From positions 1,414 through 65,413 of the forward strand of contig CAZUFC010000031.1 in NCBI GenBank assembly GCA_964619725.1: a stretch of DNA of 64,000 bases, in the 5' to 3' direction. The stretch comes from an uncultured bacterium. GTDB lineage: Bacteria; CSSED10-310; CAZUFC01. The position numbers and the translations under genes were made by a program. The notes under the pieces were generated by a model, which searched no databases, was not told the DNA's origin, and worked only from the letters and a program-made list of their open reading frames with translations. Shown here one piece after another: positions 918 to 52,752 of this stretch (within the stretch, counting starts at the first letter, position 1; every line of letters starts with the position of its first letter).

Positions 918-3857
918 ATGAGGAGTTTGGGGGCAATAATATTATTGATTTTGTGGACATCAGCGGGGTATTCGGGATCGGTGCACACGACATATTTATG
1001 GCACATGCATCAACCGATCTATTGGCCTGATGCGAGCCAGTGGGAAGCGGGGACGTATCAGAAGGCGTATGAATCAATTTATTGGAAGCAGAACGGAGGC
1101 AACGTTTATCCGGGTTCGTCCGGTTCTCACCCTTTCAATGATCTGGACCAGATATTCAGCAAAGACGATCGCATTGCGGATTATCAGTATTATCCGCGCA
1201 ATGCGCTGTCGGCGGTGTGGGATGTGCCGGATTGCGGGGCCCAGGTGAGTTTTGCGGCATCTCTCATTGAGAACATATCCTCTTTGTCCGAAGCCGGCTG
1301 GCACGGCGGCGCGTACGGCGGTGACTGGCGCTCAGATTACCGGGAAGCTGCATTATGGACCACATCAAACGGAAAGCCGCGTCTGGATTTAGTCGGAGTC
1401 GGCGCTCATCACGCCGTGAATCCGCTCATCGATCCGCTTGCCTTAAGGAAAGAAATTCAGGTACAAAAAGCGGCCCGCCAATGGTTGTGGCCGGATATTC
1501 CTGAGACGCACGGTTTTTTTCCTGCTGAGACCTGTTTCAGCGAGCGAATGATACCTGTGCTGGTTCAGGAGGGCTACGAGTGGGTATTCGTTCCTAACAT
1601 ACACATTTCCAGGGCCTGCACGGATTATCCTTTTGAAGCTATGGGCGACAATATTGATCCTCCGAATCCAGCCGATCAGATCAACGGCGCCGGCGGGGAA
1701 TATTTTGAACTGACTATTCCTCGCGGCGTAACGACCCGCAATGCGGTTCCCCTGGCTTACCGTCCGCACACCATACAGTATGTCGACCCTTACAGCGGTT
1801 TCATAAGCCGTATGATCGCGGTTCCGACGGCCCAGGGAATGAGCTGGAATGAAGGATACGGTCCGTACGGATTCGGTGAGATAGACCAGGTCGCGTGGGC
1901 TTCGACGCCTGAGAATCCTTTGTTGGTTGTTTTTGCGCATGACGGGGATAATGCCTATTCAGGCGGTTATTCCTATTACAATGAAAATGTGCCTAATTTC
2001 TGTCATCAGGCTCAGAATCTGGGTCATCATCCCACCACAGTCGATCAGTACCTGGCCGATAATCCGGTTGATCCGCAAGACGTAGTGCACGTCGAGGACG
2101 GCGGCTGGGTGAATGCGGACGGCGATTTCGGTTCTCCTCAATATATAAACTGGAACTGGCCCCTGGTCGATGCGTCCGGACAGTTCGATATTCCGGCAGG
2201 ATGGGCGGAAGACCAACGTAACTGGGCAGTCATAACTGCCGCTCACTCATTCGTCGAAACCGCCGAACAGATGGCCGGCCCCTCACGCGCTCATCAGATT
2301 TTCAGACCTCAGGATGGAGGGACAGACCTGGAAAAAGCCTGGCATTTTTATCTTTCCGCTCTGGAATCGGGTTATATGTATTACGGATCGAGCCTGGACA
2401 TGGAAGTAAAAGCGACCTTCGCCTGTAATCATGCGGTCTCCTACGCTCAGCAGTCGATGAATTCCGCTGACGACCCTGACGAAACGGGACCGGCGATATG
2501 GTTGCCGCAACGTTTGCCCTGGAATCCCGGCGGCATGGGTATGGGATCGTTGTGGAATTATGAATATATCTCGATGGACCGCGATTTTTACGTCTGGACT
2601 TTCGTGCACGATCCGAATGGAGTAACCGATGTAAAACTATACATAAGAGTGGACGACGACGGGGTTAATCCTTTGAACACCACCGTCAATGAAACTTTCG
2701 CCGGCGGGCTCGGAGTCGGAGATTGGATCGAAATGCCCATGAACTGGCGGGATTTCCCTGCAGAAGATATTTTTAATGATCCTGAAATCGATTTCTTCGT
2801 TTTACCCGATTATATCGCCGATGAATACTGGGTCCTGGTCGAAGGATATGAAAACGTGCTGCTGGATTATTTCGTAGAAGCGGAAGACAGCCTGGGCAAC
2901 ATCGACCGCTCACCCATTCAGCACGTCTATGTCGGCGATCAGAACAATCCTCAAACCGGCGTTTCCTGGGAACCTGAGAATCCGACATATATGGATGTGA
3001 TCACCATAACCGTCCATGATCCGGGACAGGGCGGATGGTTGCACTGGGGCGTCAACGCGGACGGAAATGACTGGGAAACGCCTCATACGGCATACTGGCC
3101 GCCCGGAACCGAACTGTTCCAGGGCGCCGGACCGGCAGTGGAGACCGAATTAGAAGGTCCCGATGAAAACGACGATTATTCAATCGAAATCGGACCTTTC
3201 AACGACCCCGTCCAGACCGTCGAAACGGTGGATTTCGTCATACATTTTTACGACGACACCTGGGACAACAATAACGACAATGATTATCACATTACCGTAT
3301 CGCCGTTTACACCAACGCCTTCCCCTACGCCTTCGCCTTCCCCTACGCCCACAATCTTTCCCACAAGAACGCCATATCCGACAAAAACAGACACCCCCAC
3401 GCCCGATCCATCCTCTTCTCCAACTCAGACAAATACTCCCTACCCCACAGCCACGCCTTCCCCGGCTCCCGGAGAAGCCGTCATATTCCTCAATCTCAAC
3501 AAATCCTGGTTCAAAGCAGAAGACAGACTCATACTTACCAGGACTATTGCGAATCCAAACCAGACGCCTGTTCCATGCTCACAGTGGATCGCCCTGGAAG
3601 TCCTCGGCTCCTTCTATTTCTATCCCTCCTGGACTACAACGCCTGAATCTGAATCCTTTACGCTTCCGCCCTTTTACGTCGATGCTGTGCAGGTCCTGAA
3701 CATTCTGCTGCCGGATGAAATCTCTCCCGGCGGTCCATACTTCTTTCACGCTCTCCTTACAGACAGCGAAACCGGGGCCGTCGTATCCAAACTTGACAGC
3801 GAGGTCTTCGGATTCTACCAGTCATTCTCTAACTCTCATCAATCTTTTCCGCAATGA
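918..3857 (+). CDS. Secreted GH57-like alpha-glucan hydrolase with putative starch-binding module, Pro/Thr linker and conserved C-terminal domain
   Basis: GGAGG RBS before ATG 918 (track ORF starts at 825); signal peptide; GH57-type motifs [16 protein letters not shown] (nucleophile Glu), AHDGDN (acid/base Asp); CBM-like LHWGVN...[12 protein letters not shown] linker. Confidence 0.8.
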
Positions 3858-3963
3858 TGACTGAATTCAAACCGCTTAAATTATACCCCTCTTTTTCGTC
3901 TCAACTTTAAATGTAATTTCATTCATCAAATCTCATCATCATCAATTCTTTAAAGGAGTAATC

Positions 3964-4530
3964 ATGTATAACAAATGGAAAAAGGAACCGATTGAATTGC
4001 CCTTCTCTGACCTTCCCCAAAATCTCTCCTCTATGGACGGGTTGTTTCCGGTTGAAGTAATGTTCGATCAGGACATCGGCAAAGAAATAACGCTTTTTCT
4101 CATCGATTCCACCCCCTTCGTCGATGAGCTGGCTGAATTGAATCCTTTCAATCTCATGATGAAATCGGGACTCGCCGAAACTTCCTACGGTCCTCTTCTC
4201 TATCACCTTTTCTATATTCCCGACCCTGAAACCCAGGATGAACTCTACGCCGCATACGACATCCATTCAAATCCGCTGGATGAGGAACATATTGAAATCT
4301 GGAAACGGCTGGCCGATCAGTCGCACCTGCATCTCATACTCGTCGGCACCGAACACAAAATAGTGCAGGTCTATGAATTCGAAAACCTCTTCGATGTGGA
4401 TGAAACCCTATCCCTCATTGAAACTCTTAAGGGAAAAAAAGACGATGTTTCTTTCGAAAAAGCTAAACAGGAATTTACCTCCCAATACGGCGTCCTGGAC
4501 CTTTTTAAACTGCCCGGCTTCTCTGAATGA
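3964..4530 (+). CDS. Hypothetical acidic cytoplasmic protein
   Basis: 188-aa ORF with AAGGAG RBS; no family recognised. Confidence 0.75.
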   Translation: MYNKWKKEPIELPFSDLPQNLSSMDGLFPVEVMFDQDIGKEITLFLIDSTPFVDELAELNPFNLMMKSGLAETSYGPLLYHLFYIPDPETQDELYAAYDIHSNPLDEEHIEIWKRLADQSHLHLILVGTEHKIVQVYEFENLFDVDETLSLIETLKGKKDDVSFEKAKQEFTSQYGVLDLFKLPGFSE

Positions 4531-4554
4531 AAAACCTGCTGCCCCCTGTCCGGG

Positions 4555-4621
4555 ATAGCTAGTGGCTGTCCAGCATTAAATTTTGAATCGAGATTCGAGT
4601 TTATGGACAGGCACTAGCTAT
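4555..4621. repeat. 18-bp inverted repeat / long hairpin (terminator or MITE-like remnant)
   Basis: ATAGCTAGTGGCTGTCCA (4555-4572) versus TGGACAGGCACTAGCTAT (4604-4621), 1 mismatch; inner GAATC-GA-GATTC stem. Confidence 0.7.
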
Positions 4622-5242
4622 TCAAAATTCTCCTGTTTTTATCGTCACGGATTTTATATTTTTTTTTGTCTCTTTTGTGAAATTAAAACGTTTATCTATA
4701 TAGAAGGGCGCTGCTGACAAGAGCGCTCTCCGGCAAAAGCTTTCCGACGGATTGATGGGAATGTTCCGTTCGGAACGCTTCATTGAAGCTTTAAAAAAGA
4801 TCAGCCTCAAGTCTCACTACAGGCTGACGAAATTAAGGAGAAGCCTGTTTACGGAACGTCTGAAATGGAATCGGCAGTAAACAGAAAAAAAACAAAATGG
4901 AACATTCGCCGTAATGTATTTAACAACGAAGGTTCAACAGGCGATTTTGAGGGACAAAAGTGAAACGTTTGTCAGGGCGTGTCGAAAATGGGGTGAATCG
5001 ACCGGATCAGGGGTTCTCAATGAAAACGATCCATAATCGTCCGATAAATGCTTCAAATCGCATAACGGCATTCGACGCCGGCCAAAACATCACAAAAATG
5101 CGAAAAACGAAGGATAAGACAACACATTCGGGAATCGGACAAAACTCGTTTACAGCGTTGTTGTAGCGGGCTTCTTTTTAACCTCATTCCTGACGGCGGC
5201 GGTCAGCAGGTATTAGCCATCCAGCCTCCGGCATCCGCCTTC

Positions 5243-5271
5243 TTGACTTTTATAAATCTGACTATTAAATT
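5243..5271 (+). promoter_or_regulatory. Putative sigma70 promoter for the glycosylation cluster
   Basis: TTGACT-17 nt-TAAATT just upstream of the 5290/5320 start. Confidence 0.4.
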
Positions 5272-5289
5272 GGCAGACCTGAATAATCC

Positions 5290-6570: not shown

Positions 6571-6573
6571 GAG

Positions 6574-7956: not shown

Positions 7957-7977
7957 TGCAGCCGGATACCCGGTCAA

Positions 7978-9252: not shown

Positions 9253-9296
9253 TCCGCCCTGCGAATCCAAAGACTGATCGTAAAGGAATTAAAACA

Positions 9297-10181: not shown

Positions 10182-10261
10182 CGCAGATGAGGGGAAGGAC
10201 CGAAGTTTGGTTGGTTGGAAGAGGCGATGGTTGGATGGTTGATTGCGGTTGTAAATAGGGG

Positions 10262-10346
10262 TAGGGGTTCGAAATCGAAACAAAATGATGGCCTATTCTG
10301 TCGAATGGTAACCGCAATAGACCTATTTTAGATCAATGCCCGAATT
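10262..10346 (-). repeat. Dispersed intergenic element, copy A (conserved core, degenerate hexamer tail)
   Basis: Reverse complement reads ATTGATCTAAAAATAG...GGTTACCATTCGACAGAATAGGCCATCATTTTGTTTCGAT, matching the copies at 10710 and 34876. Confidence 0.75.
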
Positions 10347-10608
10347 TCCCAAGTTTGTTTCGATTACGATGTAGATTGAGATAACGACTTAAATCGAAGC
10401 AAAGCGCAGACAGACCGAACAAACACCGGATGAACCGGACGGCGAAAACGCTTAACCAGAAGCCGATGCTTCTTTCTCGCCGCCGGTTATCCATGACCGT
10501 CAGCCTGTTTATCTTTTGTCGTAATCAATGCTATCAGCATTACCCGAATGATCCAATTTTGAATCCTGACCCGCGTTCGCCCAAGAGAGCTTCGGCGCCG
10601 ATCCCAAA

Positions 10609-10651
10609 AGTCCCTTCTGTCCCTTAGGTCCCTTTGTCCCTTTGTCCCTTT
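10609..10651. repeat. Short tandem GTCCCTT(N) repeat, 5 units
   Basis: gtcccttct gtcccttag gtcccttt gtcccttt gtccctt. Confidence 0.75.
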
Positions 10652-10709
10652 CGAAGCTTAAAAAATTCCGGCGCTGATGATACCCGTGTTTCGAGGTTAC
10701 ATTTTTGCC

Positions 10710-16850: not shown

Positions 16851-17885
16851 TTAATTCTGACTTCTGATGTTATCAGATTGAAAAGAACCCGTCAAATAAC
16901 CTTTCTGCGAACGCACTCTGTATTTTCTTTTTTTCACCCTGACTTCAATTTCCCGGTAAATTTTGTCCGTGCCCATCATAGCGGAATTGAATCCGATGAT
17001 GTATTGCGAGCCCAGTTCTTTAAGAATAACATCACACGCCCTTTTCATTTCATGCGGTTCGCCGACCATAAAACATTTGCCCCCGGTAGCCGAGGCTATT
17101 TCTTTAAGCATCTCCCGGTTGATCAGATCGGGTTGATTGGGCGGAAGTTCCTCGCCGTAAATAGGATCGATTCCGATTGAATAAACCGGTATATTGATCC
17201 GTCTCGTCAGCAGCAGCGCTCTTTTCAATTCCAGATTGCTGGCATTGTCGATGCCGTCAGTGAAAAGTAGCACCGCTTTATGAACATGTTCGCCTTTTCT
17301 GGCGATTTCAGGCACTGCTGCGACCGCATCAAGCAGCGCCGTTTTACCATAAGCCTTGACGCCCTTCATGGACTCCTTCAGTTTCGTCTTGCTCTTTGTA
17401 AATAGCGAACCGACTTCCAGGCCCGCATCCGCAAACAGAAGCAACGCAGCTTCATCCTCTTCCTTAAGGTAATTTATCAGGATTGTAACCGCCTCTTTGG
17501 CATTGTCGAACTTGTCCAGTATCCTCATGCTGCCGCTGACGTCCAGAAGTATGACCAGACTCGTCGGAGCCTCATACGATTTAGTCACTTCCTTGATCTC
17601 CTGCGGTATTCCATCTCTGAGGACAATGAAATCATTCTTTGAAAGATCAGTAACGAATCTGCCTTTTTTATCGGTCACCGTCACGGTCACTCTCACGAAC
17701 TCGACCGAATACGAAAGATCATAATCAATATCCTGCGGAACATCTTGATTGCCTGATTCGGCGGATTTTTTTTCATTTTCTGCAGATGCGTATCGTTCCC
17801 CGAAAATATGACCGCAGCAGAGAAGCATAAGACAGATAAGGAGCATCCTGAATAACCGGCATTTTATCGATCTATTTCGCTTCAT
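16851..17885 (-). CDS. Secreted VWA-domain protein (acidobacterial VWFA-like)
   Basis: VTVTDKKGRFVTDL, MIDAS LLDVSGSM, TALLDA, FTDGID, TGG, QYIIGF. Confidence 0.9.
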   Translation of the reverse strand: MKRNRSIKCRLFRMLLICLMLLCCGHIFGERYASAENEKKSAESGNQDVPQDIDYDLSYSVEFVRVTVTVTDKKGRFVTDLSKNDFIVLRDGIPQEIKEVTKSYEAPTSLVILLDVSGSMRILDKFDNAKEAVTILINYLKEEDEAALLLFADAGLEVGSLFTKSKTKLKESMKGVKAYGKTALLDAVAAVPEIARKGEHVHKAVLLFTDGIDNASNLELKRALLLTRRINIPVYSIGIDPIYGEELPPNQPDLINREMLKEIASATGGKCFMVGEPHEMKRACDVILKELGSQYIIGFNSAMMGTDKIYREIEVRVKKRKYRVRSQKGYLTGSFQSDNIRSQN

Positions 17886-17886
17886 G

Positions 17887-20841
17887 TTATTGGCTGGCGT
17901 CCTCCGGAATTACGACGACGTTCAAAGACTTATATTTTTTATGCCAATTGACGGGAAATTTCAAACGAAAACCTTTCCGTGATCTGTAAATAAGATGGCG
18001 TTTTTCATAACCGTACCGGAATAATTTCCAGGTAATTTCCACGTCTTTTCGGCAGTATTCGGTCAGCAAATTCCATTTCGCTTCTCTGAACCATCTTATG
18101 GCGGCCAGTCCATCACCTGATTTTCTCGCGCCCAGAGTCTGTTCAGCCAGGTGGTCCAGGCTTAAGCGGTGTCCGAGTCTGTCAGCGACATCTTCCAGTA
18201 TATCGATGTTCCTTATCTTGTTTATCTTGTGCTTGCTGTATCCTTTAAGCACCGTGTAATCGAAACGCTTCTGATTGAATCCAATGATAACCTCGGCCTC
18301 TTCCAGCCGCTGAATCAAATCACGCGCCTGTTTTTCATAATAAATTTCGTAGCGTTTCTGTTCGACATCGTAAACGACGCCGACCGACAGTTTCATTTTC
18401 TTTATGTTGCTCCATCCGCCTACGTCGTCGGAACTGTTTTGAGTTTCCAGATCAAAGACCAGTATTCTGCCTTTCCGGGCTGAAGAAAGAGGCGGAGCTT
18501 CAGGTTCGGGTTGAGAGGGCAGGCGGGGCAGCGGAATCTTTTTTGGTACTGTTTTCTTTTTTGTTTTTTCAGGCCACCGGAAATTTTCATCCAGAAGAGC
18601 TGTAAGCAGAAGAACGGCGCCCTGCTTGTCCAGCGGTCTATTGCCGGCTCCGCAGCGGGGCGAAAAAATGCAGGATGGGCAACCTTCCGTGCATTCGCAT
18701 GATTCGATGGTATCCAGGGTTCTCTGCAGTAAGTCGCGGCCGAATGTTATGCCCTTTTCAGCTATTCCTATGCCTCCGGGGACGTAATCATAAATGAAAA
18801 CAGCGCCTGTTTTCGTCTGGGGATGAAAGGGGAACGATATGCCGCCGACGTCGAACCGGTCGCACATCGTAAAAAGCGGGTAAAGCGACAGAATAACATG
18901 TTCGCAGGCATGGATGGCGCCCATGAAATGATGGTCCTGGTCTTCGAGAAGCATGCGATATTTTTCGTCAAATTGAAACCACACGCCGGTGGTTTCAAAT
19001 ATCAAAGGCGGCAGATCCAGGTCGTGTCTGCCCAGTATATCTCCTCCATGAATTCTCTTCTTGACATAGGAATCGATGAGCTCCGTCACTTTTATTCGCC
19101 CGCGGTGCATGACGGTACGGCCGACCGAAGCCGATTCCAAATCGTCCAGTATTTCCGTTTCTTTCTGGTTTCTCGTCTGCGTGTACCAGGCTGCTTTGGT
19201 TCGCCGGACCAATATGCTCTTCTTGTTCAAATCCATGTCCAGCACGTGATATGTCTCTCCTCCATGCAGATACACGGCCCCTGGATGCCCCTCATGGAAA
19301 GCCCGCGTCCCTGACATCCTGCCGATGACGCGGTGCTCGGCGCCTTCTTCGACAATCGTAAAACTGTCCCCTGCCGATCGAATATCGACTTGTCGCTCAG
19401 GATGGTCCTTCACGGAATGCCATCTGAGTCTGTCGACTTCTGTGAGCAGCTTCCCAGATTCTTCCATTTCATTAACCAGCGCGGCCGTCTGTTTTCCGAA
19501 TATGTTCAATTCATCTTCTTCAATAGGAGCTTCAAAGGCCGCACACATCAATTGCTTTTCAGCGATGTACCTGTTCTCAGGATCGATGCCGGCTTTTTCA
19601 AAAGGCAATCCGAACAGGACGTCCGGATGCTTGACGAAATACTGGTCCAGAGCGTCCTGTCCCGCAATCATGAATACCAGAGGTTCCTTTCCCCGTCGCC
19701 CGACTCTTCCGCCTCTCTGTTGAGTGCTCACGATGGTGCCGGGATACCCTGAAAGAATGCAGACATCCAATCCCCCGACATCAATTCCCAGTTCAAGTGC
19801 GCTTGTGGAGACTACTCCTTTCAGCTTTCCCGAAAACAGCTTCCTCTCCGTTTCCCTTCGCTCCTCCGGAAGAAATCCCGCCCGGTATATTCCTATTTTA
19901 TCCTTTAACTCCTGGTCCTCTCCTGTCGACCAGGCATAGATCAACTCGGTTATCTTTCGAGCCTTCGTAAATACGATCGTTTTGAGGCCGGAATTCACGC
20001 AGACCCGTAGCAAACGTGATGCAACCGTCATGGAACTCAACTCCGGATTCAAAATGACGAAGTGCTTGCCGGGCGTCGGCGCTCCGGACTCCTTCACAAC
20101 CCGAGCCTCCCGATTCGTAAGACGATCAAAAAGCTCGCCGGGATTGGCTATGGTTGCTGATGCCGATATTATTGAAGGACGAACGCCGTAATGACGGGCA
20201 ATGCGCAGAAGCCTTCGGAGTATAAACGCCACATTGCTGCCGAATATCCCCCGATAGGTATGTATTTCATCAATGACGATGAATTTCAGATTCTGAAAAA
20301 ATTCCGACCAGGATTCATGGTAAGGCAGAAAAGAGCGATGCAGCATGTCGGGATTGCTTATGAGTATATTGGGCGTGTTGGACCTTATTTTTGTTCTTTT
20401 GTGCGAGGGAACATCACCGTCGTAAACAGCGACCAGCGATTCCGGCGTTCGGTCGAAATAAGAAGCCGCTCCTTGCAGCATTATCGACTGATCCTGACCT
20501 AAGGCTTTGAAGGGAAAAAGATACAATGCTTTCGACTGCGGATGGGTCAGAATGCTTTCCAATACAGGAATATTATAGATCAGGCTTTTCCCGCTGGCTG
20601 TCGGAGTCGCCGCCAAAACGTCGTAACCCGACCTGATCAAATCGATGCATGCAGCCTGATGGGAGTATAAGTTCGTTATGCCGGCATCCACTAACCATTT
20701 CGTTGTCCTTTCATCTAAAGGTTCAGCAGGTTCTCCGACCTTTGCTTCTGCAGGCGGAGTATACTCGTGATGCACCCACATGTCTTTATATGTTCGATCA
20801 GATTTCAGATTCTCAAGAAATTGAATTATACGAGGGTCCAT
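17887..20841 (-). CDS. DEAH-box helicase with DUF1998 (MrfA/SftH/Hrq1-like) fused to a C-terminal RNase H-like (YprB/MrfB-like) exonuclease
   Basis: TPTASGKS, DEIH, SAT, ALELGIDVG, QRGGRVGR; Zn motif CECTEGCPSC; C-terminal FDLETQ...GFNQKRFD...YCRKDV. Start is probably 20841 (track 20877). Confidence 0.92.
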   Translation of the reverse strand: MDPRIIQFLENLKSDRTYKDMWVHHEYTPPAEAKVGEPAEPLDERTTKWLVDAGITNLYSHQAACIDLIRSGYDVLAATPTASGKSLIYNIPVLESILTHPQSKALYLFPFKALGQDQSIMLQGAASYFDRTPESLVAVYDGDVPSHKRTKIRSNTPNILISNPDMLHRSFLPYHESWSEFFQNLKFIVIDEIHTYRGIFGSNVAFILRRLLRIARHYGVRPSIISASATIANPGELFDRLTNREARVVKESGAPTPGKHFVILNPELSSMTVASRLLRVCVNSGLKTIVFTKARKITELIYAWSTGEDQELKDKIGIYRAGFLPEERRETERKLFSGKLKGVVSTSALELGIDVGGLDVCILSGYPGTIVSTQQRGGRVGRRGKEPLVFMIAGQDALDQYFVKHPDVLFGLPFEKAGIDPENRYIAEKQLMCAAFEAPIEEDELNIFGKQTAALVNEMEESGKLLTEVDRLRWHSVKDHPERQVDIRSAGDSFTIVEEGAEHRVIGRMSGTRAFHEGHPGAVYLHGGETYHVLDMDLNKKSILVRRTKAAWYTQTRNQKETEILDDLESASVGRTVMHRGRIKVTELIDSYVKKRIHGGDILGRHDLDLPPLIFETTGVWFQFDEKYRMLLEDQDHHFMGAIHACEHVILSLYPLFTMCDRFDVGGISFPFHPQTKTGAVFIYDYVPGGIGIAEKGITFGRDLLQRTLDTIESCECTEGCPSCIFSPRCGAGNRPLDKQGAVLLLTALLDENFRWPEKTKKKTVPKKIPLPRLPSQPEPEAPPLSSARKGRILVFDLETQNSSDDVGGWSNIKKMKLSVGVVYDVEQKRYEIYYEKQARDLIQRLEEAEVIIGFNQKRFDYTVLKGYSKHKINKIRNIDILEDVADRLGHRLSLDHLAEQTLGARKSGDGLAAIRWFREAKWNLLTEYCRKDVEITWKLFRYGYEKRHLIYRSRKGFRLKFPVNWHKKYKSLNVVVIPEDASQ

Positions 20842-21061
20842 ATTGTCCTTTCGGCCTAGTTCCGCCGGAGCAATCATAACGAATCACAGTTTTTGATTCA
20901 AGATGAATTAATTTCACGAAATTTGATTATTTTTTCGCAATCTGGTATCTCAAAGAAGGGTAGGACGACTTAAGCTTAAAATTTTTTTAAACGGCAACGG
21001 CCCCAGGATCAACGTTTGAAAAAAAATCAAATTTCCGAAACAGGCCGGGAGGATAAAAAAA

Positions 21062-24000
21062 ATGAATTCCCGATTGACGACAATTTTCCTGCTTGCATTG
21101 TTTTTTTCGATTTCCACTCAATCGCTTATTGCTGCTGAATGGATATCTCTGATTGAGAGCTCTTCGCCCGGTGATATGCCGGTTGTAAGAGTAACAAATT
21201 CAGACGAGGGAGAAACTTTGTTCAGCGTAACCATACCGGGATTGTGGTTGGAGGAAGTGGAAAGAGAAGGAGAGACATTCACGAAATTATCAATACCCGG
21301 AGAGGGAAATTTACGCAATATCGGAGAACCTGAGCTTCCAGTTCTGGGTCGCATGGCGGCGGTACCCGATGCCGGTAGACTTCATATGCAATTCGAAGTT
21401 GGCGGCAGGAGCGTGATAGAGGATATTCGCATCGTACCGGCCCTGAAAAGAGACCGTTCGGAAGAAGGCTCGTTCAAGTTGAACCCAGATATTTATTCAT
21501 CGTCAGAAATGTATCCGGCGGATGCGGCGGCGATGGACCGTCCGTCCATATTGCGCGATTATCGATATGTCAGGGTCGAGCTTCATCCTTGTCGTTATGT
21601 TCCAGCGGAAAATAAAGTAATAATTTCATCGTCGTTCGATGTTCGTCTTGAATATACCGATTCTGAAGGCGTGAATCCTCAAATCGACGGCGACGAACCC
21701 GTGAGCGTGACATTCAGTCGATTATATGAGCGCTGCTTTATTAATTATTCTTTTTTGCCCGACCGGGAGAAGGATGCGACAGAACCGTTACTGATAATCT
21801 GCTATGATGACTTTACCGACGAGATGTCGCCCATTGTCGAATGGAAGAAAAAGCGAGGATTGCCGACGACACTGACTCCTTTGTCGCAGGTGGGTGATTC
21901 GGCAGCAGACATCAAGAGCTATATCCAGCAGGCTTATGACGAATGGACTCCGAAACCGGTTTATGTATGGCTGATCGGGGACGGCGACGAAATACCGACG
22001 AATTACGGCATTGAAGGGTGCGCTTCGGACTACATGTATACGACTCTGGAAGGTTCGGACATTGATCCGGACATACTGATCGGCCGTTTGCCGGCTCAAA
22101 GCGGTTCAGAAGTCAGCGATCAGGTCAGCAAATTTTTCATGCATGAATCTTCGCCTCATGCTGACGACGATGCTGCGATGTATAGAAAGGCGACGGGAGT
22201 ATCGTCCAGCTCAGGCTGGCCTGTGAATGATGACGATCGTTTGAATAATATACGTGACAGTTGGCTGTCCTACGGCCTGGAATCGGTTGATAAATTTTAC
22301 AACAGCAATGGAACGGCAACGCCCTCTCACATCCTGACTGCCCTGGATGAAGGGCGTTTCTGGATAACTTACATGGGTCACGGTGACGGTACCGGATGGA
22401 CTAACACGAATCCCAAATTTTCCAATTCGCATATCGATCAATTGAATAACGAGGACCGTTTTTGTTTCGTGGTCGACATTGCCTGCGACAACGGAGCTTT
22501 TACAGGTTACGGCGACTGTTTCGGCGAACGCTGGCTTAAGGCGGGAACAGTTGAAGAACCCAAGGGCGCGGTCGGATGCTATTCTTCATCCACGGGGACC
22601 GCGTGGGATGAATCCGGTGAGTTAGGTGAAGGCATGACTTATGCCTGCACGGACGAAAACATGTTCTGCTGGGGAAGCTCGGCATTGGGCGCCATGTTGT
22701 ATTTAAAGGGGCAGATGGGTTCTGGAAGCAACGTTTTGGAAGTTTTCCAGCAGTTTATACTGTTCGGCGATCCATCCATATATATCTATGCCGGTAATCT
22801 GATCGAACCGGTGGTCGCTCATGATCCTTTTATACCCCTGGGTTCGCATGAATTCACGGTCAGCGTGACGGACGGTTCCGAACCTGTCGCCGGCGCAGCG
22901 GTATGCGCCTGGCTGGAAGACGAATTTTACGCGGTCGAGGAAACGGATGCATCCGGAACAGCCGTATTACAAGTCGATTCGAACAATTACGGTGATGCCT
23001 TTTTAACGGTCACAGGCAATAATATCAGGCCTTATCAGGAAATCGTACCAGTCATGATACCCAGTTGCGGGATCGTTACGTTCGACAAATCGACATATAA
23101 CTGTTCGGATGACCTTGAAATAAGGGTTTGGGACACTGATTTAAATTCTAATCCTGCTTTTCCCGATACGGGCACAGCCGATATATGCAGCGACTCCGAA
23201 CCTGTTCCGGAAACGATAACTCTAACTGAAACCGGGCCGAATACCAGTGAGTTCCTCGGAACGATAACTCTGTCTGAAACTCAGAGCGGTCCGGGATACC
23301 TGCTTACGTCAGACGGAGAAACCATCACCGGACATTATCACGACGAAAACTGCGAAGGCGAACCGCACGAAGTTTACACAGACTCTTCGACGGATTGTAT
23401 CGCTCCCTCGATTTTTAACGTTTCATCATCCGAAGTGACCGTGACGGGAGCCGTCGTTTCCTGGCAGACGGACGAAACTTCCGACAGCCTCGTATATTAC
23501 GGGTCGAGCTTTCCGTTGACCATGACCTCTTACGATCCGGCATTAACGACTGACCATACGATTACGCTGGAAGGACTGGAAGAATGCACGGTTTATTATT
23601 TTTACGTCGTTTCTGAAGACCAGGCCGGCAACATCGCCCTGGACGATAACGGCGGCGATTACTATGATTTCGTTACACTGAACATCGACATTCACTTCAG
23701 CGACGACGTCGAATCAGGTCCGGGGGATTGGAGCGCAACAGGATTATGGCATATTGTAGGACCTGATAGCGATTGCTCTGAATATCACTCGGAAAATCAT
23801 AGCTGGTACTACGGAGAAGAAGATTCTTGCACCTATGATACCGGAGGAACCACACAGGGATGTCTGACGACCCCGCCCATCGATTTGACCGAGGCGACCG
23901 CCGCCAATCTGACCGTATGGCACTGGCTGCAAACTGAAAATATGCAGGGTTACGATACGGGCGTCATTCAAATAAAGAAAAATTCACAGGGCAGCTTTAC

Positions 24001-24811
24001 GACTCTCGGTTCCTATATTTCGACAGGAGGTTCCTGGCAGGAACTCGAATTCGACGTCTCCCCTTACGTAGGAGATACTGTGACCCTCAGATTCTGCTTC
24101 GACAGTGATGACGCGTATTATAACGACTACAGAGGATGGTATATCGATGACGTTCTCCTCGCCGTCGAATCCGAATGCATCCCGGATACTCCTACCCCCT
24201 ACGATACGCCCACTCCGACTTCCTCGCCTACCCAATCTCCTACCGCAACACCCACCCTTTCCCCCACGAACACAGCAACTCCTACACTCTATCCGACGTT
24301 ATCACCCACTTTAACTCCAACGCCAACACCGACTTTCACGATCCCCCACACTTCTACTCCCACCAGAACACCAACGCCTACTTCAACTCCGACACAGGAT
24401 ATTACACCTACTCCTACCTTTTACCCCTCAATTACTCCCACAGCTTACTACACTCACGTTCCTCAGGATATCTCAATTAAACTGCTCTTGAACCAGGAAA
24501 TGTTCCATGCCGGCGACCAGTTTATTCTCGATTGCCGTATCACTAATAATACCGAAAACTCGCACACCTTGAACCGGTTCATCCTGCTGGACGTTTATCA
24601 GAATTACTGGTTCTACGATGACTGGACCCAGGAAATGGACTGGACCGTCGAAGAAATTCCCGCCTACTTCGACGAAACGGACAACATCCTGATTTTCGTA
24701 TGGCCGGCAAACGCAGGCGTCGCTTATGACCTTAAATTCTGGGCGGCGCTTATCGATGATGACTGGAACATTATCGGGGAGGTGGATTCCAAGTCCTTCG
24801 GATATGAATAA
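21062..24811 (+). CDS. Gingipain-like peptidase C25 (propeptide, catalytic, Ig/FN3-like, adhesin-like jelly roll, PT linker, conserved C-terminal domain)
   Basis: Signal peptide; propeptide GEPELP; catalytic YMGHG and DIACDNG (His-Cys dyad as in RgpB); LFGDPS. Confidence 0.92.
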   Translation: MNSRLTTIFLLALFFSISTQSLIAAEWISLIESSSPGDMPVVRVTNSDEGETLFSVTIPGLWLEEVEREGETFTKLSIPGEGNLRNIGEPELPVLGRMAAVPDAGRLHMQFEVGGRSVIEDIRIVPALKRDRSEEGSFKLNPDIYSSSEMYPADAAAMDRPSILRDYRYVRVELHPCRYVPAENKVIISSSFDVRLEYTDSEGVNPQIDGDEPVSVTFSRLYERCFINYSFLPDREKDATEPLLIICYDDFTDEMSPIVEWKKKRGLPTTLTPLSQVGDSAADIKSYIQQAYDEWTPKPVYVWLIGDGDEIPTNYGIEGCASDYMYTTLEGSDIDPDILIGRLPAQSGSEVSDQVSKFFMHESSPHADDDAAMYRKATGVSSSSGWPVNDDDRLNNIRDSWLSYGLESVDKFYNSNGTATPSHILTALDEGRFWITYMGHGDGTGWTNTNPKFSNSHIDQLNNEDRFCFVVDIACDNGAFTGYGDCFGERWLKAGTVEEPKGAVGCYSSSTGTAWDESGELGEGMTYACTDENMFCWGSSALGAMLYLKGQMGSGSNVLEVFQQFILFGDPSIYIYAGNLIEPVVAHDPFIPLGSHEFTVSVTDGSEPVAGAAVCAWLEDEFYAVEETDASGTAVLQVDSNNYGDAFLTVTGNNIRPYQEIVPVMIPSCGIVTFDKSTYNCSDDLEIRVWDTDLNSNPAFPDTGTADICSDSEPVPETITLTETGPNTSEFLGTITLSETQSGPGYLLTSDGETITGHYHDENCEGEPHEVYTDSSTDCIAPSIFNVSSSEVTVTGAVVSWQTDETSDSLVYYGSSFPLTMTSYDPALTTDHTITLEGLEECTVYYFYVVSEDQAGNIALDDNGGDYYDFVTLNIDIHFSDDVESGPGDWSATGLWHIVGPDSDCSEYHSENHSWYYGEEDSCTYDTGGTTQGCLTTPPIDLTEATAANLTVWHWLQTENMQGYDTGVIQIKKNSQGSFTTLGSYISTGGSWQELEFDVSPYVGDTVTLRFCFDSDDAYYNDYRGWYIDDVLLAVESECIPDTPTPYDTPTPTSSPTQSPTATPTLSPTNTATPTLYPTLSPTLTPTPTPTFTIPHTSTPTRTPTPTSTPTQDITPTPTFYPSITPTAYYTHVPQDISIKLLLNQEMFHAGDQFILDCRITNNTENSHTLNRFILLDVYQNYWFYDDWTQEMDWTVEEIPAYFDETDNILIFVWPANAGVAYDLKFWAALIDDDWNIIGEVDSKSFGYE

Positions 24812-24962
24812 TCATATTATTTTTTTTGAATTACTTCGTAATAAATTTGATTGTAAGTTGTATATCTGTTAATTGATAAGCGAGTAATCGCGGACCGACT
24901 TCTGTCTTGCGTTTATTTCTTCACAGTTTTAAAACCGGAATTTCAAAGGAGGAAAAAGTTAA

Positions 24963-27900
24963 ATGAGACTGCTTCAAGGCTTTGTCATAATTTTGTGCGT
25001 CGGAAGCCTTTTTTTGCCGGCATCTGCAGATGCAGGACGCTGGATTTCACTGACAGACGGAGCGGAACCGGGCAGTCCGCCGACCGTCACAGTTATTTCA
25101 TCTGATGAATCTGAAACAGTTCTTTCAGTCGAAGCGACCGGATTCTGGGTTGACGACGTCGAAATGAACGGTGAAATATTTCAGAAAATCAGTTTTCCTG
25201 ATGAGGGTTATATGAGGAACCTGGGCGAACCTGAGCTGCCTGTAATCGGCCGCATGGTAGTCGTGCCTGACCTCAAGGGCATTTCCATGGATACTGCGGT
25301 GAGTGGAGAAACGGTTCTGGAGGGATATCGCATCAATCCTGCTCAAAAGAAATACCGTTCTTCGATCCCGGTCGAATTCAAATTCAACCGTGAGGTATAT
25401 TCTTCATCGAAGCCGTATCCGTCGCAGGCAGCGTCAAAGGGACGTCCGTCCATCATGAGGGATTACCGGTTCGTACGGGTAGAATTTCATCCTGTTCGTT
25501 ATATTGGTTCTGAGGAAAAGCTCATCGTCAACAACGAGATAACTGTGACTCTGCGTTATGAGGGACCGGCCCAGATCAATCCGCATTATCAGGAAGCAGG
25601 CGAGAGCATCAGTCCGACATTTGCAGTATTATATAAAGAATATTTCATTAATTATAATTATCTGCCAGAGCGCGAAAAAGACGCGGCAGAACCTTTGCTG
25701 ATAATATGCTACGATGAATTTGCGACTGAGATGGATGAGATCGTACAGTGGAAAACCAGGCGTGGTTTGCCGGTTACTTTAACCCTGTTGTCGGACATAG
25801 GAACATCAGCAGACGATATTCAGGATTACCTGCAGGAAGCCTACGACACCTGGAGTCCCAAACCTGTATATGTATGGCTGATAGGCGACGGCGGCGAGAT
25901 ACCGACGAATTACGGTATAGGAGGCTGTGCGTCTGATTATATGTATACGACCCTGGAAGGCTCTGACATAGACCCTGACGTTTTCATCGGGCGTTTATCC
26001 GCGCAAACGGGGACCGAAGTCGCAAACCAGACGACGAAGTTCATCACGCATGAATCGACGCCTCAGACAGGCGAAGAAGCGGCCATGTATCTGAATGCGA
26101 CTGGCGTATCTTCGAGCGACGGTTATCCTGTAAACGACGACACGAGACTGGATCGTATAAAAGACAGTTGGATCGACTATGGAATAGATTCTGTAGACCG
26201 TCTTTACATCAGCAACGGACAGGCTACTCCGGCGAACATCATTGATGTGCTGGACGAAGGACGTTTCTGGATAACGTATATGGGTCACGGAGACAGAACA
26301 GGCTGGACCAGCACCAATCCCAAGTTCTCCAACTCCCACATCGATCAGTTGAACAACGAGGCTCGTTCATGCTTCGTGGTAGATATAGCCTGTCAAAACG
26401 GCGCTTTCGTCTCGGGCAGCGACTGCTTCGGCGAACACTGGCTAAAGGTTGGCACGGCGGCTGAGCCTAAAGGGGCCGTGGGTTGTTATTCCTCCTCGAC
26501 CAATACGGCCTGGGATGAATCGGGCGAACTTGGCGAAGGCATAACCTATGCCTATACGGAAGAAGATATGACGACGTATGGCGCTGCTGCGATGGGGGCC
26601 ATGCTTTACCTGGAGGAACAGATGGGTTCGGGCAGCAACGTGGAGGAAGTTTTTCAGCAGTTCGTACTGTTCGGCGATCCTTCCATTCACGTTTATGCAG
26701 GAGAACTGATCGACCCCGTGGTGACGCATGATCCTTTCATACCGCTTGGTTCGGTGGATTTTCAGGTCACGGTGACTGACGGTTCCAATCCGATTGAAGG
26801 AGCTGTCGTCAGCGCGTGGTTGCCGGGCGAATTTTACGAAGTCGAATTGACGGACGCTTCCGGCGTGGCAGTGTTATCCCTGGAATCCTCCATCTACGGC
26901 GATGCCTTCTTAACGGTCACGGGCAACAATATTAGACCTCATGAAGAAATAGTGCCCGTAATGATTCCGAGTTGCGGCATAGTGACTTTCAACCAGGCTA
27001 AATATCACTGCTCCGCAGAGCTTGAATTACGCGTTTGGGATACTGATCTTAATACGGACCCTGGCGTTGTCGATACGGCAGAGGCCGACATATCGAGCGA
27101 TTCAGAACCTGCGCCCGAAATTATCAATTTGACGGAAACGGGTGCGGATACCAATGAGTTTCTGGGAACGATCATGCTTTCGGAAACGGAAAGCGGACCC
27201 GGTTATCTCCTGGTTTCCCATGAAGACGTTATAATCGCTCATTATTACGATGAAGATTGCGAAGGAGAGCCCGTCGACGTTTATGAAACGGCTGAGGCTG
27301 ATTGTGAGGGACCCACTATAAGCGGCGTTTCTTTCTTCAATGTTACGGACACCCAGGCAATCATCACCTGGACGACCGATGAAGCATCAGACAGCGCGGT
27401 CTATTACGGTTTCGATACTCCGCCGACAGAATCGGTCGCGCTGAGCGAATCGGTTACTGAACATGTCGTTCTGCTGGAAGGGCTGGATAATTGTTCGAAA
27501 TACTATTTCTATGTGACTTCAACAGACGGATCGGGGAATACGGCGATTGACGATAACTCGGGCGAGTATTTCTATTTCAATACATTAGGACATTTTGTCC
27601 TTCTGGAGGAGATGATGGATGCCGATCCCGGCTGGACCGTATCCGGCGGAGATTGGGAATTCGGCCAGCCCACGGGCCAGGGAGGTTCTTACGGCGATCC
27701 TGACCCGACGTCAGGTTACACGGGAGACAATGTATACGGGTACAATCTCAATGGCGATTACACAAACAGCATGCCTGCCTATCATCTGACCACGCCGCCT
27801 CTGGATTGTTCCATGGCATCGGGCACGACTCTTACCTTTTACCGGTGGCTGGGGGTTGAACAACCGACTTATGATCATGCTGTCTTATCGGTATCCAACG

Positions 27901-30107
27901 ACGGAACTAACTGGGACGAATATTTCCATAACGAAGGGACCATTTCGGACGGAGACTGGGTTGAATGCACCTATGACATTTCCGCTTCTGCAGACGGACA
28001 ATCGACGGTTTACATTCGCTGGAGCATTGGTCCGACAGATTCAGGCTGGACCTATTGCGGATGGAACATCGATGATGTTGAGGTCTCATATCTGGCGCCT
28101 TGCAACGTCCCGATCCTGACCCACGACAGCCATACGATCAATGATCAAGCCGGCAACGCCAACGGCGAACCCAATCCCGGCGAATGCATCGTCTCCGAAA
28201 TTACCCTTTATAATAATTCCGGCATAGACGCGACGAACATCTCCGCGACCGTTTCGGAAACCAGCGAATACGTGAGCGTTACCAACCCGGATATCACTTT
28301 TCCCGATATATCCGCCCACGAATACGGCTCATCCATTGGTCCCCATCTGGCCTGGGATATCGACTCATCAGCGCCCGACGGCGCCATCGTACAGTTCTCC
28401 ATTTCCTGGACAAGCGATGAGGGGTCCGGTAATACGGCCTTCTCAGCGACCATCATGAAACCGATACTCAATTACACGAACCACACCATCGACGATTGCA
28501 CGGGCGATAACGACGGCATCGCCGATCCGGGAGAAAGCATCGTATTGCCTGTGCTCCTGACTAATTCTGGTCACGGAATCGCCATGAACGTGGCCGGGAC
28601 TCTTAGCACGAGCTCCGAACATATCGTCATGGTCGACGATGCCGGCGCCTGGAACGACATTCCCGGTGAAGAATCAGGATGGAGCATCGATGATTTCGGT
28701 TTCGAAGTAAGTCCGGATGCGCCATTGGGAGAAATGGTTGAAGCGACTTTACAGGTTTATGGCGACGGATTCCTTAACACTTTTAATTTCACATTCGGAA
28801 TAGGAGCTCTGCCGGTTTTGGTGATAGACGATGACTCTGGCGATCACGCCGCCGTTTTTACCGACGTTCTGGCGAACAACGGTTATCTCGTGACGGAAGA
28901 GACGCCCGCCGGGACTGACCCTGGCGAATGGCCCGCTTATACTTTCATCGTGTGGAGTTCCGGAGACAGCAGCGAACCCGTGTCTCAATCCGCGTGGTGC
29001 GATAATCTGGAATCATACGTTGCCGACGGCGGTAAATTGCTGATCGAAGGCGGCGAGATAGCCTATGATTTCTATTGGAGCGACCCCGATTTTCTGGAGA
29101 ACGTATGCCATGTATCAGACTGGAACGGAGACAGTTCCGGCGATCTCGAACTGGCCGCTGCAGATCATCCGATCGCATTCTCTCCCTATGAACTTCCTTC
29201 CACAATTCAACACGCTTACTCGAGCTATTATGATGAAGACGCCTGTGATGCCGCTTCAGATGCTGAAATCGTCTTCGGATGGTCTTCGGCAAGCGGCGGT
29301 GGTCTTATAGTCTACGATGACGATACTGATCCGGGTAACGGAGGACAAATTGCTTTCTACTCCTATTCCATAGGAAACGTTGAAATTGATCTGCAGGACA
29401 AGATGATCGTCAATACTGCAGCCTGGCTGGCAGGCGGCGGCGGCGCCCTTCCCACTCCCACTCCTTCCTTCACACATGGTCCTCCTACATACACGCCTAG
29501 TTATACTCCGACCTACTCACCCACTTCCGTGCCTCCCACAAATACTCCCACTTTCACGCCCACCTCTTCTCCCACTGATATCCCGCCGACTTACACGCCG
29601 ACTGAAACGCCCACCGAAGTCCCGCCTACCTGGACGCCGACATCCACGCCGACCGGCATCCCTACCGATATCCCGACTCAAATACCCACTTACATCGTGA
29701 CGGAAACGCCTACAGCAGTCCTGACAGGCACTCCTTCTTTCATTCCCTCGCCCACACCCAACAGCATCAATATCCAGGTAATTCTTAACCTGAATACCTT
29801 CAGGCCCCAGGACGACTTCATCCTGGAATGCCGTATCGTCAATCCCGGTCCATTCCTGGAGCTCAACGAATTCATTATTCTGGAAGTCTACGGCAGTTAC
29901 TGGTTCTATGACGACTGGACACAGAATTTCGACTACGTTCCGATCGAAATCCCCGCTTACTCAGATGAAACTGAATCCATCCTTCAGTTCGTCTGGCCCG
30001 AAGGAGCAGGAACAGCCGACGGCCTGAAATTCTATGCAGCCCTGCTGGATAACGCTTTCAACCTGGTCACCGACATCGACGTCATAACCTGGGGGTTCGA
30101 AGAATAA
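24963..30107 (+). CDS. Gingipain-like peptidase C25, tandem paralogue with extra domains
   Basis: Same propeptide and catalytic motifs (YMGHG, DIACQNG, LFGDPS); extra NGEPNPGE / DGIADPGE domains and a VLVIDDD domain; PT linker; conserved C-terminal domain. Confidence 0.92.
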   Translation: MRLLQGFVIILCVGSLFLPASADAGRWISLTDGAEPGSPPTVTVISSDESETVLSVEATGFWVDDVEMNGEIFQKISFPDEGYMRNLGEPELPVIGRMVVVPDLKGISMDTAVSGETVLEGYRINPAQKKYRSSIPVEFKFNREVYSSSKPYPSQAASKGRPSIMRDYRFVRVEFHPVRYIGSEEKLIVNNEITVTLRYEGPAQINPHYQEAGESISPTFAVLYKEYFINYNYLPEREKDAAEPLLIICYDEFATEMDEIVQWKTRRGLPVTLTLLSDIGTSADDIQDYLQEAYDTWSPKPVYVWLIGDGGEIPTNYGIGGCASDYMYTTLEGSDIDPDVFIGRLSAQTGTEVANQTTKFITHESTPQTGEEAAMYLNATGVSSSDGYPVNDDTRLDRIKDSWIDYGIDSVDRLYISNGQATPANIIDVLDEGRFWITYMGHGDRTGWTSTNPKFSNSHIDQLNNEARSCFVVDIACQNGAFVSGSDCFGEHWLKVGTAAEPKGAVGCYSSSTNTAWDESGELGEGITYAYTEEDMTTYGAAAMGAMLYLEEQMGSGSNVEEVFQQFVLFGDPSIHVYAGELIDPVVTHDPFIPLGSVDFQVTVTDGSNPIEGAVVSAWLPGEFYEVELTDASGVAVLSLESSIYGDAFLTVTGNNIRPHEEIVPVMIPSCGIVTFNQAKYHCSAELELRVWDTDLNTDPGVVDTAEADISSDSEPAPEIINLTETGADTNEFLGTIMLSETESGPGYLLVSHEDVIIAHYYDEDCEGEPVDVYETAEADCEGPTISGVSFFNVTDTQAIITWTTDEASDSAVYYGFDTPPTESVALSESVTEHVVLLEGLDNCSKYYFYVTSTDGSGNTAIDDNSGEYFYFNTLGHFVLLEEMMDADPGWTVSGGDWEFGQPTGQGGSYGDPDPTSGYTGDNVYGYNLNGDYTNSMPAYHLTTPPLDCSMASGTTLTFYRWLGVEQPTYDHAVLSVSNDGTNWDEYFHNEGTISDGDWVECTYDISASADGQSTVYIRWSIGPTDSGWTYCGWNIDDVEVSYLAPCNVPILTHDSHTINDQAGNANGEPNPGECIVSEITLYNNSGIDATNISATVSETSEYVSVTNPDITFPDISAHEYGSSIGPHLAWDIDSSAPDGAIVQFSISWTSDEGSGNTAFSATIMKPILNYTNHTIDDCTGDNDGIADPGESIVLPVLLTNSGHGIAMNVAGTLSTSSEHIVMVDDAGAWNDIPGEESGWSIDDFGFEVSPDAPLGEMVEATLQVYGDGFLNTFNFTFGIGALPVLVIDDDSGDHAAVFTDVLANNGYLVTEETPAGTDPGEWPAYTFIVWSSGDSSEPVSQSAWCDNLESYVADGGKLLIEGGEIAYDFYWSDPDFLENVCHVSDWNGDSSGDLELAAADHPIAFSPYELPSTIQHAYSSYYDEDACDAASDAEIVFGWSSASGGGLIVYDDDTDPGNGGQIAFYSYSIGNVEIDLQDKMIVNTAAWLAGGGGALPTPTPSFTHGPPTYTPSYTPTYSPTSVPPTNTPTFTPTSSPTDIPPTYTPTETPTEVPPTWTPTSTPTGIPTDIPTQIPTYIVTETPTAVLTGTPSFIPSPTPNSINIQVILNLNTFRPQDDFILECRIVNPGPFLELNEFIILEVYGSYWFYDDWTQNFDYVPIEIPAYSDETESILQFVWPEGAGTADGLKFYAALLDNAFNLVTDIDVITWGFEE

Positions 30108-52750: not shown

Positions 52751-52752
52751 TC

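Follow-up and report, generated by a model that had tools for sequence, protein, structure and literature searches.

Three putatively secreted proteins encoded on a 64,000-nucleotide stretch of DNA from an uncultured bacterium of the candidate phylum CSSED10-310 (the window; positions 1,414 to 65,413 of contig CAZUFC010000031.1, here C31) end in a common domain of about 115 residues. The domain is new to the databases, with no model in Pfam or NCBIfam, and it recurs in more than 200 open reading frames (ORFs) of the same genome. We think it probable, if far from certain, that CSSED10-310 uses the domain as a lineage-specific C-terminal tag for sorting and surface retention. This reading builds on where the domain sits (strictly terminal, one copy per protein), its very high number per genome, the unrelated passengers that carry it, its restriction to one clade and its interchange with a known tag; by analogy, that is the pattern by which protein-sorting tags were recognised before. 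The genome comprises 9.17 Mb in 344 contigs (90.9% complete, 6.5% contaminated). CSSED10-310 is an NCBI phylum that bears the placeholder name 'Candidatus Getofiota' and has genomes of 2.57-9.2 Mb (PMC11382960).

The terminal domain in the window and across the phylum

The three window proteins share one layout, given here in window coordinates. Envelopes of the domain were taken from a hidden Markov model (HMM) and converted from contig coordinates by subtracting 1413.

918..3857, + strand: GH57-like, alpha-glucan-related secreted protein, 979 aa (P0156), with signal peptide, passenger, Pro/Thr linker and C-terminal domain
3294..3473, + strand: linker of the GH57-like protein, Pro/Thr/Ser-rich, 60 aa
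3474..3821, + strand: C-terminal beta-sandwich domain, copy 1 (HMM envelope)
21062..24811, + strand: C25 (gingipain-family) peptidase, 1249 aa, with signal peptide, C25 propeptide, accessory domains, linker and C-terminal domain
24170..24463, + strand: linker of the 1249-aa C25 peptidase, Pro/Thr-rich, 98 aa
24464..24808, + strand: C-terminal beta-sandwich domain, copy 2 (HMM envelope), reaching the last residue
24963..30107, + strand: second C25 peptidase, 1714 aa, with signal-peptide-like start, propeptide, linker and C-terminal domain
29445..29759, + strand: linker of the 1714-aa C25 peptidase, Pro/Thr-rich, about 105 aa (start counted by eye)
29760..30104, + strand: C-terminal beta-sandwich domain, copy 3 (HMM envelope); the sequence modelled by AlphaFold2

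Over their last ~115 residues the three proteins align with 25 invariant columns. The tails of the two C25 peptidases are identical at 58 of 113 positions (51%; BLASTP E 1e-39), and the GH57-like tail matches a C25 tail at 32 of 111 (29%; E 4e-12), alignments that confirm the three tails as homologues at the sequence level. The original prediction had proposed exactly such a common terminal domain on unrelated secreted proteins, preceded by a signal peptide and a Pro/Thr linker. A signal-peptide-like start and a linker are indeed present in all three, and the HMM envelopes agree with the predicted tail coordinates to a few bases. Both peptidases are well supported as C25 enzymes by Pfam, with Peptidase_C25 at E 1e-53 to 1e-54 and Propeptide_C25 at E 1e-19 to 1e-22 across the pair (9.8e-54 and 8.9e-19, respectively, for the 1249-aa protein). 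The 1714-aa peptidase also matches the NCBIfam choice-of-anchor J model (choice_anch_J) at 29.1 bits, near the cut-off of 30. The first protein had been called a GH57 enzyme, a label that we find plausible but not established: the alpha-glucan Ig-like domain Ig_N_CWD1 is the only Pfam family above its cut-off (E 2.5e-11), Glyco_hydro_57 scores 20.8 bits and falls marginally under the cut-off of 21.2, and the protein has no match among PDB sequences. Its ORF is open from a TTG at 825 (825..3857), but the likely start is the ATG at 918, from which the signal-peptide-like segment begins. It extends 12 residues beyond the domain, with the stop at 3855-3857.

We then searched all six-frame ORFs of at least 60 aa in the genome (53,820) by iterated hmmsearch. 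The profile of the three window tails alone gave at least 150 matches, and successive rounds yielded 216, 224 and 228 domain ORFs. Among the 224 ORFs of round two, the domain ends 0-2 residues before the stop in 203 (about 91%, the extreme C-terminus), 3-5 residues before it in 7, 6-10 in 2, 11-20 in 4, 21-50 in 4 and more than 100 in 4, so that 216 of 224 copies lie within 20 aa of the stop. A single copy is present in 223 of the 224 and two copies in the remaining one. By a crude greedy gene call the domain occurs on 216 of 6394 genes, about 3%, and its ORFs span a wide size range (14 below 200 aa, 44 of 200-500 aa, 118 of 500-1000 aa and 48 of at least 1000 aa).

The C-terminal position is not absolute, since a few copies follow a signal peptide directly or sit internally. 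The domain stands directly after the signal peptide in C153:3829-6570 (-), where FGE-sulfatase domains follow, and in C40:22837-25440 (-), where further domains follow. It lies between two FGE-sulfatase domains in C179:522-2942 (+), is internal with 130 more residues behind it in C104:5774-8029 (-), and occurs twice in a protein of repeated modules in C112:3106-6579 (+). These atypically placed ORFs are real proteins. The genome-wide HMM search proposed earlier as a check of position thus bears out the C-terminal rule for the great majority of copies and fails it for these few.

Beyond this genome, a HMMER search of a library of 1.84 billion proteins (cluster representatives) returned 2517 matches at E<=1e-3, 1901 at E<=1e-10 and 54 at E<=1e-30. 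In 147 of the best 150 the match ends no more than 4 residues from the end of the protein, the exceptions being P0061, P0088 and P0143. Chance is excluded as an explanation by the 224 ORFs in one genome together with the 1901 library representatives at E<=1e-10. The few named library members are called only 'candidate division CSSED10-310 bacterium' or 'bacterium', and the range of the domain outside the phylum is gauged from these library counts and few names. Within the phylum we compared 14 species genomes, the window's own (G000) and 13 others (G001-G013). The domain occurs in 11 of the 14, with at least 150 copies in each of G000, G001 and G002 and 56-103 in the others; a profile search did not find it in G011, G012 or G013, each of which is a family of its own. 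These counts support the domain as lineage-specific to CSSED10-310, as had been predicted.

Secretion context, passengers and exchange with membrane-type tails

Signal-peptide-like starts were called in ORFs of at least 400 aa with a home-made heuristic that allows the first four start codons; a looser first version passed 59% of control ORFs and was replaced by the stricter one used here. With it, such a start is called in 152 of 186 domain ORFs, compared with 881 of 2377 control ORFs. When only the first start codon is allowed, the counts are 110 of 186 and 549 of 2377 untagged ORFs. This shows the domain to be enriched on proteins with a signal-peptide-like start, which is an enrichment and not proof of export. 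The linker is a regular companion as well: the 40 aa upstream of the domain consist of at least 40% Pro+Thr in 116 of 208 domain ORFs, against 1.4% of 1000 random control windows.

The proteins that carry the domain are diverse. Scanning 77 members, taken from 86 proteins of 300-1100 aa among the best 150 library matches, identified 44 Pfam families at E<=1e-5. These include M14 (6), BNR_2 (4), PAD_porph (2) and M6 (2), as well as beta-helix, LTD, GH15, S8, C1, Endonuclease_1, PEBP, Kelch and others. Partial NCBIfam matches fall on 'myxosortase-dependent M36' (5), 'T9SS-dependent M6-like' (2), 'rhombosortase-dependent M36' (2) and choice-of-anchor D (1), and the NCBI record of one family member is named choice-of-anchor J. 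These partially matched passenger families are ones that travel with known C-terminal sorting signals in other phyla.

A second type of C-terminal tag is common in the phylum. It consists of [IV]P[ATV][LMF], a transmembrane (TM) helix and a basic tail, and is frequently preceded by Pro/Thr-rich sequence (for example C1:116473-121089 and instances on C232, C11 and C39 in the own genome; loci L056-L059, L070, L071 and L073 in G012 and G011). The C25 peptidases use either tag. The search for C25 domains in the own genome gave 23 rows, which became 20 ORFs once two second pieces were merged and the row of a 4489-aa ORF with only a PorU C-terminal region was dropped. Twelve of these 20 end in the domain, four in [IV]P[A/V]x followed by a TM helix and a basic tail, three PorU-like proteins in an 'LWPxLNV'-type tail, and one otherwise. 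In G012, which has no copy of the domain, four C25 homologues break off behind the 'GGQIxF...W' region and end in VP(T/V)L, TM helix and basic tail. One of these tails passes the IPTL-CTERM model (24.9 vs 20.5 bits); the others match only 'midcut_by_XrtH', an exosortase-substrate model, below its cut-off.

The M14 peptidases offer the closest comparison. P0153 (own genome, contig C5) and its G012 orthologue are 51% identical over 1005 residues and share the passenger end '...NGGQ.VF...W(L)S' (shared region 'GGQIxF...W'). After this point P0153 continues into a Pro/Thr linker of ~120 aa and the domain, whereas the orthologue continues into 'VPAL' and a TM helix and then stops. Another paralogue in G012 ends in 'VPTLS', TM helix and basic tail, and a G011 homologue in a Pro/Thr linker, 'VPAIT', TM helix and Arg-rich tail. 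Since orthologues and paralogues carry one tail or the other, the same passengers choose between two terminal modules, one of them belonging to a recognised class of surface-sorting signal.

The two modules exclude each other within a protein. A regular expression found 78 own-genome ORFs of at least 300 aa with such TM-type tails, none of which also has the domain, and none of the 290 own-genome ORFs with any C-terminal TM helix plus basic tail falls in the domain set. We also considered whether the TM-type tails replace the domain from genome to genome, and rejected this: with 78 of them in the own genome, both tags are in use side by side. Few matches per genome came from the IPTL-CTERM model and from a four-sequence profile of the G012 tails, both too weak for counting. 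PEP-CTERM (TIGR02595) gave no match at E<=0.001 in the 14 genomes, nor in the control genomes, and is uninformative here. In relation to the known IPTL-CTERM and PEP-CTERM signals (TIGR04174, TIGR02595), then, the domain occupies the same place on C25 and M14 passengers, also after Pro/Thr segments, and is mutually exclusive with such tails, but it is a soluble, folded unit of 115 aa. As it has neither a TM helix nor a basic tail, it would not be the substrate of an intramembrane sortase in the same way.

Fold and comparison with the type IX secretion system

In an alignment of 32 members, L22, W53, P80 and F91 are invariant and D18, F20, N28, L41, L75, F77 and W79 are conserved in at least 90%. 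The signature opens with LxLN..F..GD.F.L, continues with an N that closes the second strand and with (I/V)ILDVYG.YWF(Y/W)P.W, and then runs through IL.F.WP and G(I/L).FWAA to a last aromatic-G/S-aromatic-(E/P). The motif blocks of the original prediction are recovered here in sharper form. AlphaFold2, run on the same 32 sequences, returned a very confident model (pLDDT 97.8, pTM 0.87) of an eight-stranded immunoglobulin (Ig)-like beta-sandwich, which suggests that the domain folds autonomously. The model is soluble and built of beta-strands, without a basic tail and, as predicted, without a TM helix.

Among structures, the best matches found with VIA-align are the N-domains of dextranase (5axg, Z 10.7) and CITase (3wnk, Z 10.0), followed by GH2 Ig-like domains (Z 8-9.6), RbmA (Z 9.2), the carbohydrate-binding domain of Wzt (Z 8.4) and CARDB (3idu, Z 8.3). 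Complement MG domains and transglutaminase C-domains match as well, and Foldseek added a porphyran-binding carbohydrate-binding module (CBM; 8wae, E 5.9e-4, TM-score 0.50). In all, Z is at least 8 for 30 chains and at least 5 for 599, and the best neighbours share 6-17% identity with the domain. The fold is a generic and common Ig-like sandwich and therefore says nothing specific on function. Look-alikes in the ESM Atlas were unnamed clusters only (best 0.92).

Sequence databases were equally uninformative. The three window tails match 0 NCBIfam families at E<=10 (release 20), and in the 2025 Pfam no family is matched by more than one of the 32 tails at E<=1 (best 0.011); the expectation that no characterised family would match was thus borne out. 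Weak PDB-sequence matches to the YWTD beta-propeller repeats of LRP2 and LRP6 (best E 7.4e-5; positions 32-95 of the 32-tail alignment, A2, 'LDVYG.YWF..W') were rejected as a coincidence of motif, because the predicted fold is a beta-sandwich. Literature searches on CSSED10-310/Getofiota and on C-terminal sorting domains listed no main-text description of the domain, and the portions covered of PMC8248873, PMC11382960 and PMC13248872 do not mention it.

The closest functional parallel would be the type-A C-terminal domain (CTD) of the type IX secretion system (T9SS) of Bacteroidota and the FCB group (TIGR04183, Por_Secre_tail). The two have much in common. Both lie at the very C-terminus of proteins with a Sec signal peptide, both recur tens to hundreds of times in a genome, and the hydrolases and adhesins that carry them are unrelated and include C25 and PAD_porph; the predicted Ig-like beta-sandwich of our domain would be a further parallel. 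The differences lie in sequence, size and setting. No sequence or profile similarity links them, our domain has ~115 aa and eight strands against a 72-position type-A model, it usually follows a long Pro/Thr stalk, and the T9SS core was not found in the phylum.

The comparisons behind this statement are as follows. TIGR04183 has 0 matches in 12 of the 14 genomes, including G000. The remaining two hold bona fide type-A CTDs, 10 in G009 and 1 in G006 (loci L061-L069), which indicates that the search works. G009, which is 69% complete, falls into 520 contigs and G006 is fragmented too; their type-A CTDs may come from mis-binned contigs of another phylum. An hhalign comparison of the 32 tails (A2) with nine of these bona fide type-A CTDs gave a probability of 0.1%. 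At E<=1 the 32 tails have no Pfam match to Por_Secre_tail, CHU_C (PF13585) or FlgD_ig (PF13860); the FlgD_ig and CHU_C models do work on this genome, as they are detected inside a giant ORF of the window (52735-63999). The three window tails have no NCBIfam match to the type-B CTD (TIGR04131), and no T9SS CTD is among the best fold-search matches listed by Foldseek and VIA-align.

Our search for the core covered SprA, GldM, PorV, GldK and PorU, but not GldL or GldN. SprA has 0 candidates in 14 of 14 genomes and GldM none, both in searches run without a positive control genome. PorV reaches 17.5 bits against a cut-off of 250, and GldK is matched only in part, chiefly over its FGE-sulfatase portion, at up to 91.8 bits (cut-off 350). 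Absence of the T9SS core is therefore likely but not proven, given the uncontrolled SprA and GldM searches. As far as sequences and profiles can tell, the domain is unrelated to the T9SS CTD and belongs to a phylum without a detectable T9SS, in keeping with the earlier claim that it lacks the T9SS signature.

PorU-like proteins do occur. Two C25 proteins, at C69:23988-27275 (L031:9989-13276; 1096 aa) and C70:1692-4955 (L032; 1088 aa), score 230 bits against the NF033707 cut-off of 420, over model positions 63-736 that include the PorU N-terminal region. They occur in a genome where SprA, PorV, GldM and type-A CTDs were not found, and together with a third C25 protein (C72) they end in a common 'LWPxLNV'-type tail.

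Role of the domain, candidate partners and the remainder of the window

How such a tag could work can be sketched from these data. A Sec signal peptide would direct export, and passage over the outer membrane would rely on a general route, with the type II secretion system (T2SS) as the simplest candidate. The folded Ig-like sandwich on its long Pro/Thr stalk would stay on the mature protein and tether the passenger, enzyme or adhesin, to some constituent of the cell envelope or matrix, presumably doing the job that the IPTL-CTERM-like motif, TM helix and basic tail do on orthologues and paralogues. We favour a retained anchor over a cleaved export signal because of the Pro/Thr stalks, the swap with TM tails and the rare N-terminal and internal copies. 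Five genomes of the phylum were predicted to belong to Gram-negative cells with type IV pili (PMC8248873), and in all 14 genomes the T2SS secretin GspD scores above its curated cut-off. Genomes with and without the domain therefore both have a general way through the outer membrane; GspD being present in both, we see no specific T2SS link.

The original prediction went further and assigned the domain to a secretion system encoded outside the window, to be sought by co-occurrence. No candidate family that we examined tracks the domain. PorU-like peptidases were rejected as an obligate partner, as their distribution fails to follow it: they occur in 8 of 14 genomes, are missing from five of the six f3 genomes (56-85 domain copies) and are present in G012 and G013, both without the domain. 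Among 876 neighbour genes of tagged genes in the own genome, grouped into 168 families, a collagen-repeat family alone stood out: of its 32 clustered members, 13 lie no more than three genes away from a tagged gene, against a background of 14% (uncorrected p 2e-4). It is a secreted family of G-X-Y repeats with a conserved N-domain of ~150 aa, and one member lies in the window at 138-581 (-; ORF 3..596). Its N-domain has 74 matches in G000, 77 in G003, 1-4 in each of G009, G011, G012 and G013 and none in the other eight genomes; being expanded in G000 and G003 only, it does not follow the domain and was rejected as a partner. Of the predicted sorting or attachment module, then, the genome-wide pattern fits a tag (203 of 224 copies terminal, 223 of 224 single, 44 Pfam families), and the dedicated machine has found no support.

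Several observations weigh against a sorting and retention tag. No partner, receptor or processing enzyme was found among the PorU-like proteins, neighbour families and GspD, and GspD is present equally in the three genomes that lack the domain. The conserved residues alternate as in a hydrophobic core, and no obvious conserved ligand site is visible in the alignment. Our signal-peptide heuristic is crude, with 37% of control ORFs passing as well. A lipobox is as frequent in domain proteins (9 of 152) as in other signal-peptide ORFs (53 of 881), and hence nothing suggests that the domain takes the place of a lipoprotein anchor. Finally, the two ORFs with the domain directly after the signal peptide, the two or three with internal copies and the one with two copies fit a binding module as well as a tag.

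Much of the same evidence could be read as a cleavable export signal for a dedicated outer-membrane translocation or attachment machine of the phylum, a functional analogue of the T9SS CTD. The pattern is that of T9SS cargo (signal peptide, C25 and PAD_porph hydrolases, an Ig-like terminal sandwich, hundreds of copies per genome), and the own genome has two PorU-like proteins with the PorU N-terminal region, even as SprA and GldM were not found and PorV stayed below its cut-off. Yet PorU-like genes are absent from most f3 genomes and present in two of the three that lack the domain, long Pro/Thr stalks make little sense on a domain that is removed, and orthologues swap it for tails of the membrane-anchor type. 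N-terminal and internal copies exist, and no candidate translocon was identified. We consider this reading unlikely. It would imply a second, independent cargo pathway for folded C-terminal domains, with no T9SS core parts and with its machinery among the genes of the 11 genomes and not of the other three, which seems improbable to us as well. A T9SS CTD that has diverged very far, handled by a T9SS that is divergent too, could likewise account for the Ig-like fold, the extreme C-terminal position, the gingipain- and PPAD-family cargo and the PorU-like proteins, but is close to refuted by the hhalign result, by the scarcity of TIGR04183 matches, by the lack of Por_Secre_tail, CHU_C and FlgD_ig matches in the 32 tails, by the missing SprA, GldM and PorV, and by a length beyond that of the 72-position type-A model.

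Two further readings were weighed. A general CBM-like or matrix-binding module, targeting particles, polysaccharide or biofilm matrix and not the cell's own surface, would agree with the best structural neighbours, which are accessory Ig-like, CBM-like and CARDB domains of glycosidases, surface proteins and other binding or scaffold proteins, with Pro/Thr linkers of the kind typical of CBM-enzyme junctions, and with the few N-terminal or internal copies. The position is far stricter than that of CBMs, however (203 of 224 copies within 2 aa of the stop), and the passengers are mostly not carbohydrate-active, being peptidases, a nuclease, PEBP, a deiminase, Kelch and BNR proteins. What stands in for the domain on related proteins is a TM-type sorting tail and not a CBM, and the fold matches are generic, the CARDB score (Z 8.3) lying within that range. 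Nor do sequences point this way: the 32 tails have no Pfam match to a CBM, none to CARDB at E<=1 and no meaningful PDB-sequence match. We regard this reading as rather doubtful.

Docking of many enzymes onto a scaffold with multiple receptors, in the manner of dockerin and cohesin in the cellulosome, would explain a single, linker-attached terminal copy on many different hydrolases, and giant multi-domain surface proteins do adjoin tagged genes in the window. These giant ORFs, however, contain ordinary Kelch, fn3, Big_5, FlgD_ig, NHL and PD40 domains, no protein with repeated receptors was identified as a scaffold, and the 32 tails have no Pfam match to dockerin or cohesin. The fold of dockerin is itself unlike our all-beta, Ig-like domain. 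Such docking therefore strikes us as very improbable, and a retained sorting and surface-retention tag is the reading that we prefer. It also agrees with the family searches as a whole, which returned no characterised family and a large set of matches that are C-terminal and enriched on proteins with signal-peptide-like starts.

The domain marks about 3% of genes, among them most large secreted proteases, glycosidases, nucleases and adhesins. A profile of it would improve secretome annotation for a whole uncultured phylum of anoxic sediments and digesters and define the phylum's extracellular degradative repertoire. The split of 11 genomes with and 3 without the domain, together with orthologues that carry an IPTL-CTERM-like tail, provides a ready comparative design for a partner search. 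Should a new translocon or attachment enzyme turn out to be that partner, protein sorting in diderm bacteria would gain a new pathway; should the domain simply bind the envelope as an anchor, it would offer a new and practically useful module for surface display. It would be categorically new only if a dedicated machine exists.

Domain scans of the other ORFs in the window suggest no sorting machine. They encode glycosyltransferases, a B12-radical-SAM enzyme, HflX, an FG-GAP protein, a VWA protein, a DEAD/MrfA-type helicase, a sulfatase, a GH77 enzyme and the two giant adhesin-like ORFs. At 16851-20877 (-) the VWA protein adjoins the 995-aa DEAD-box helicase, which has an MrfA Zn-binding domain and an RNase H-like / 3'-5' exonuclease C-terminus; this pair is unrelated to the domain. 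The first giant ORF, 38333-52750 (+), encodes 4805 aa with Kelch, fn3, Big_5 and DUF4998 domains. The second, 52735-63999 (+), runs off the window with at least 3755 aa inside it (a 4489-aa open frame) and contains NHL, PD40, internal FlgD_ig and CHU_C-like domains. The two overlap by 16 bases and may form one surface-adhesin locus.

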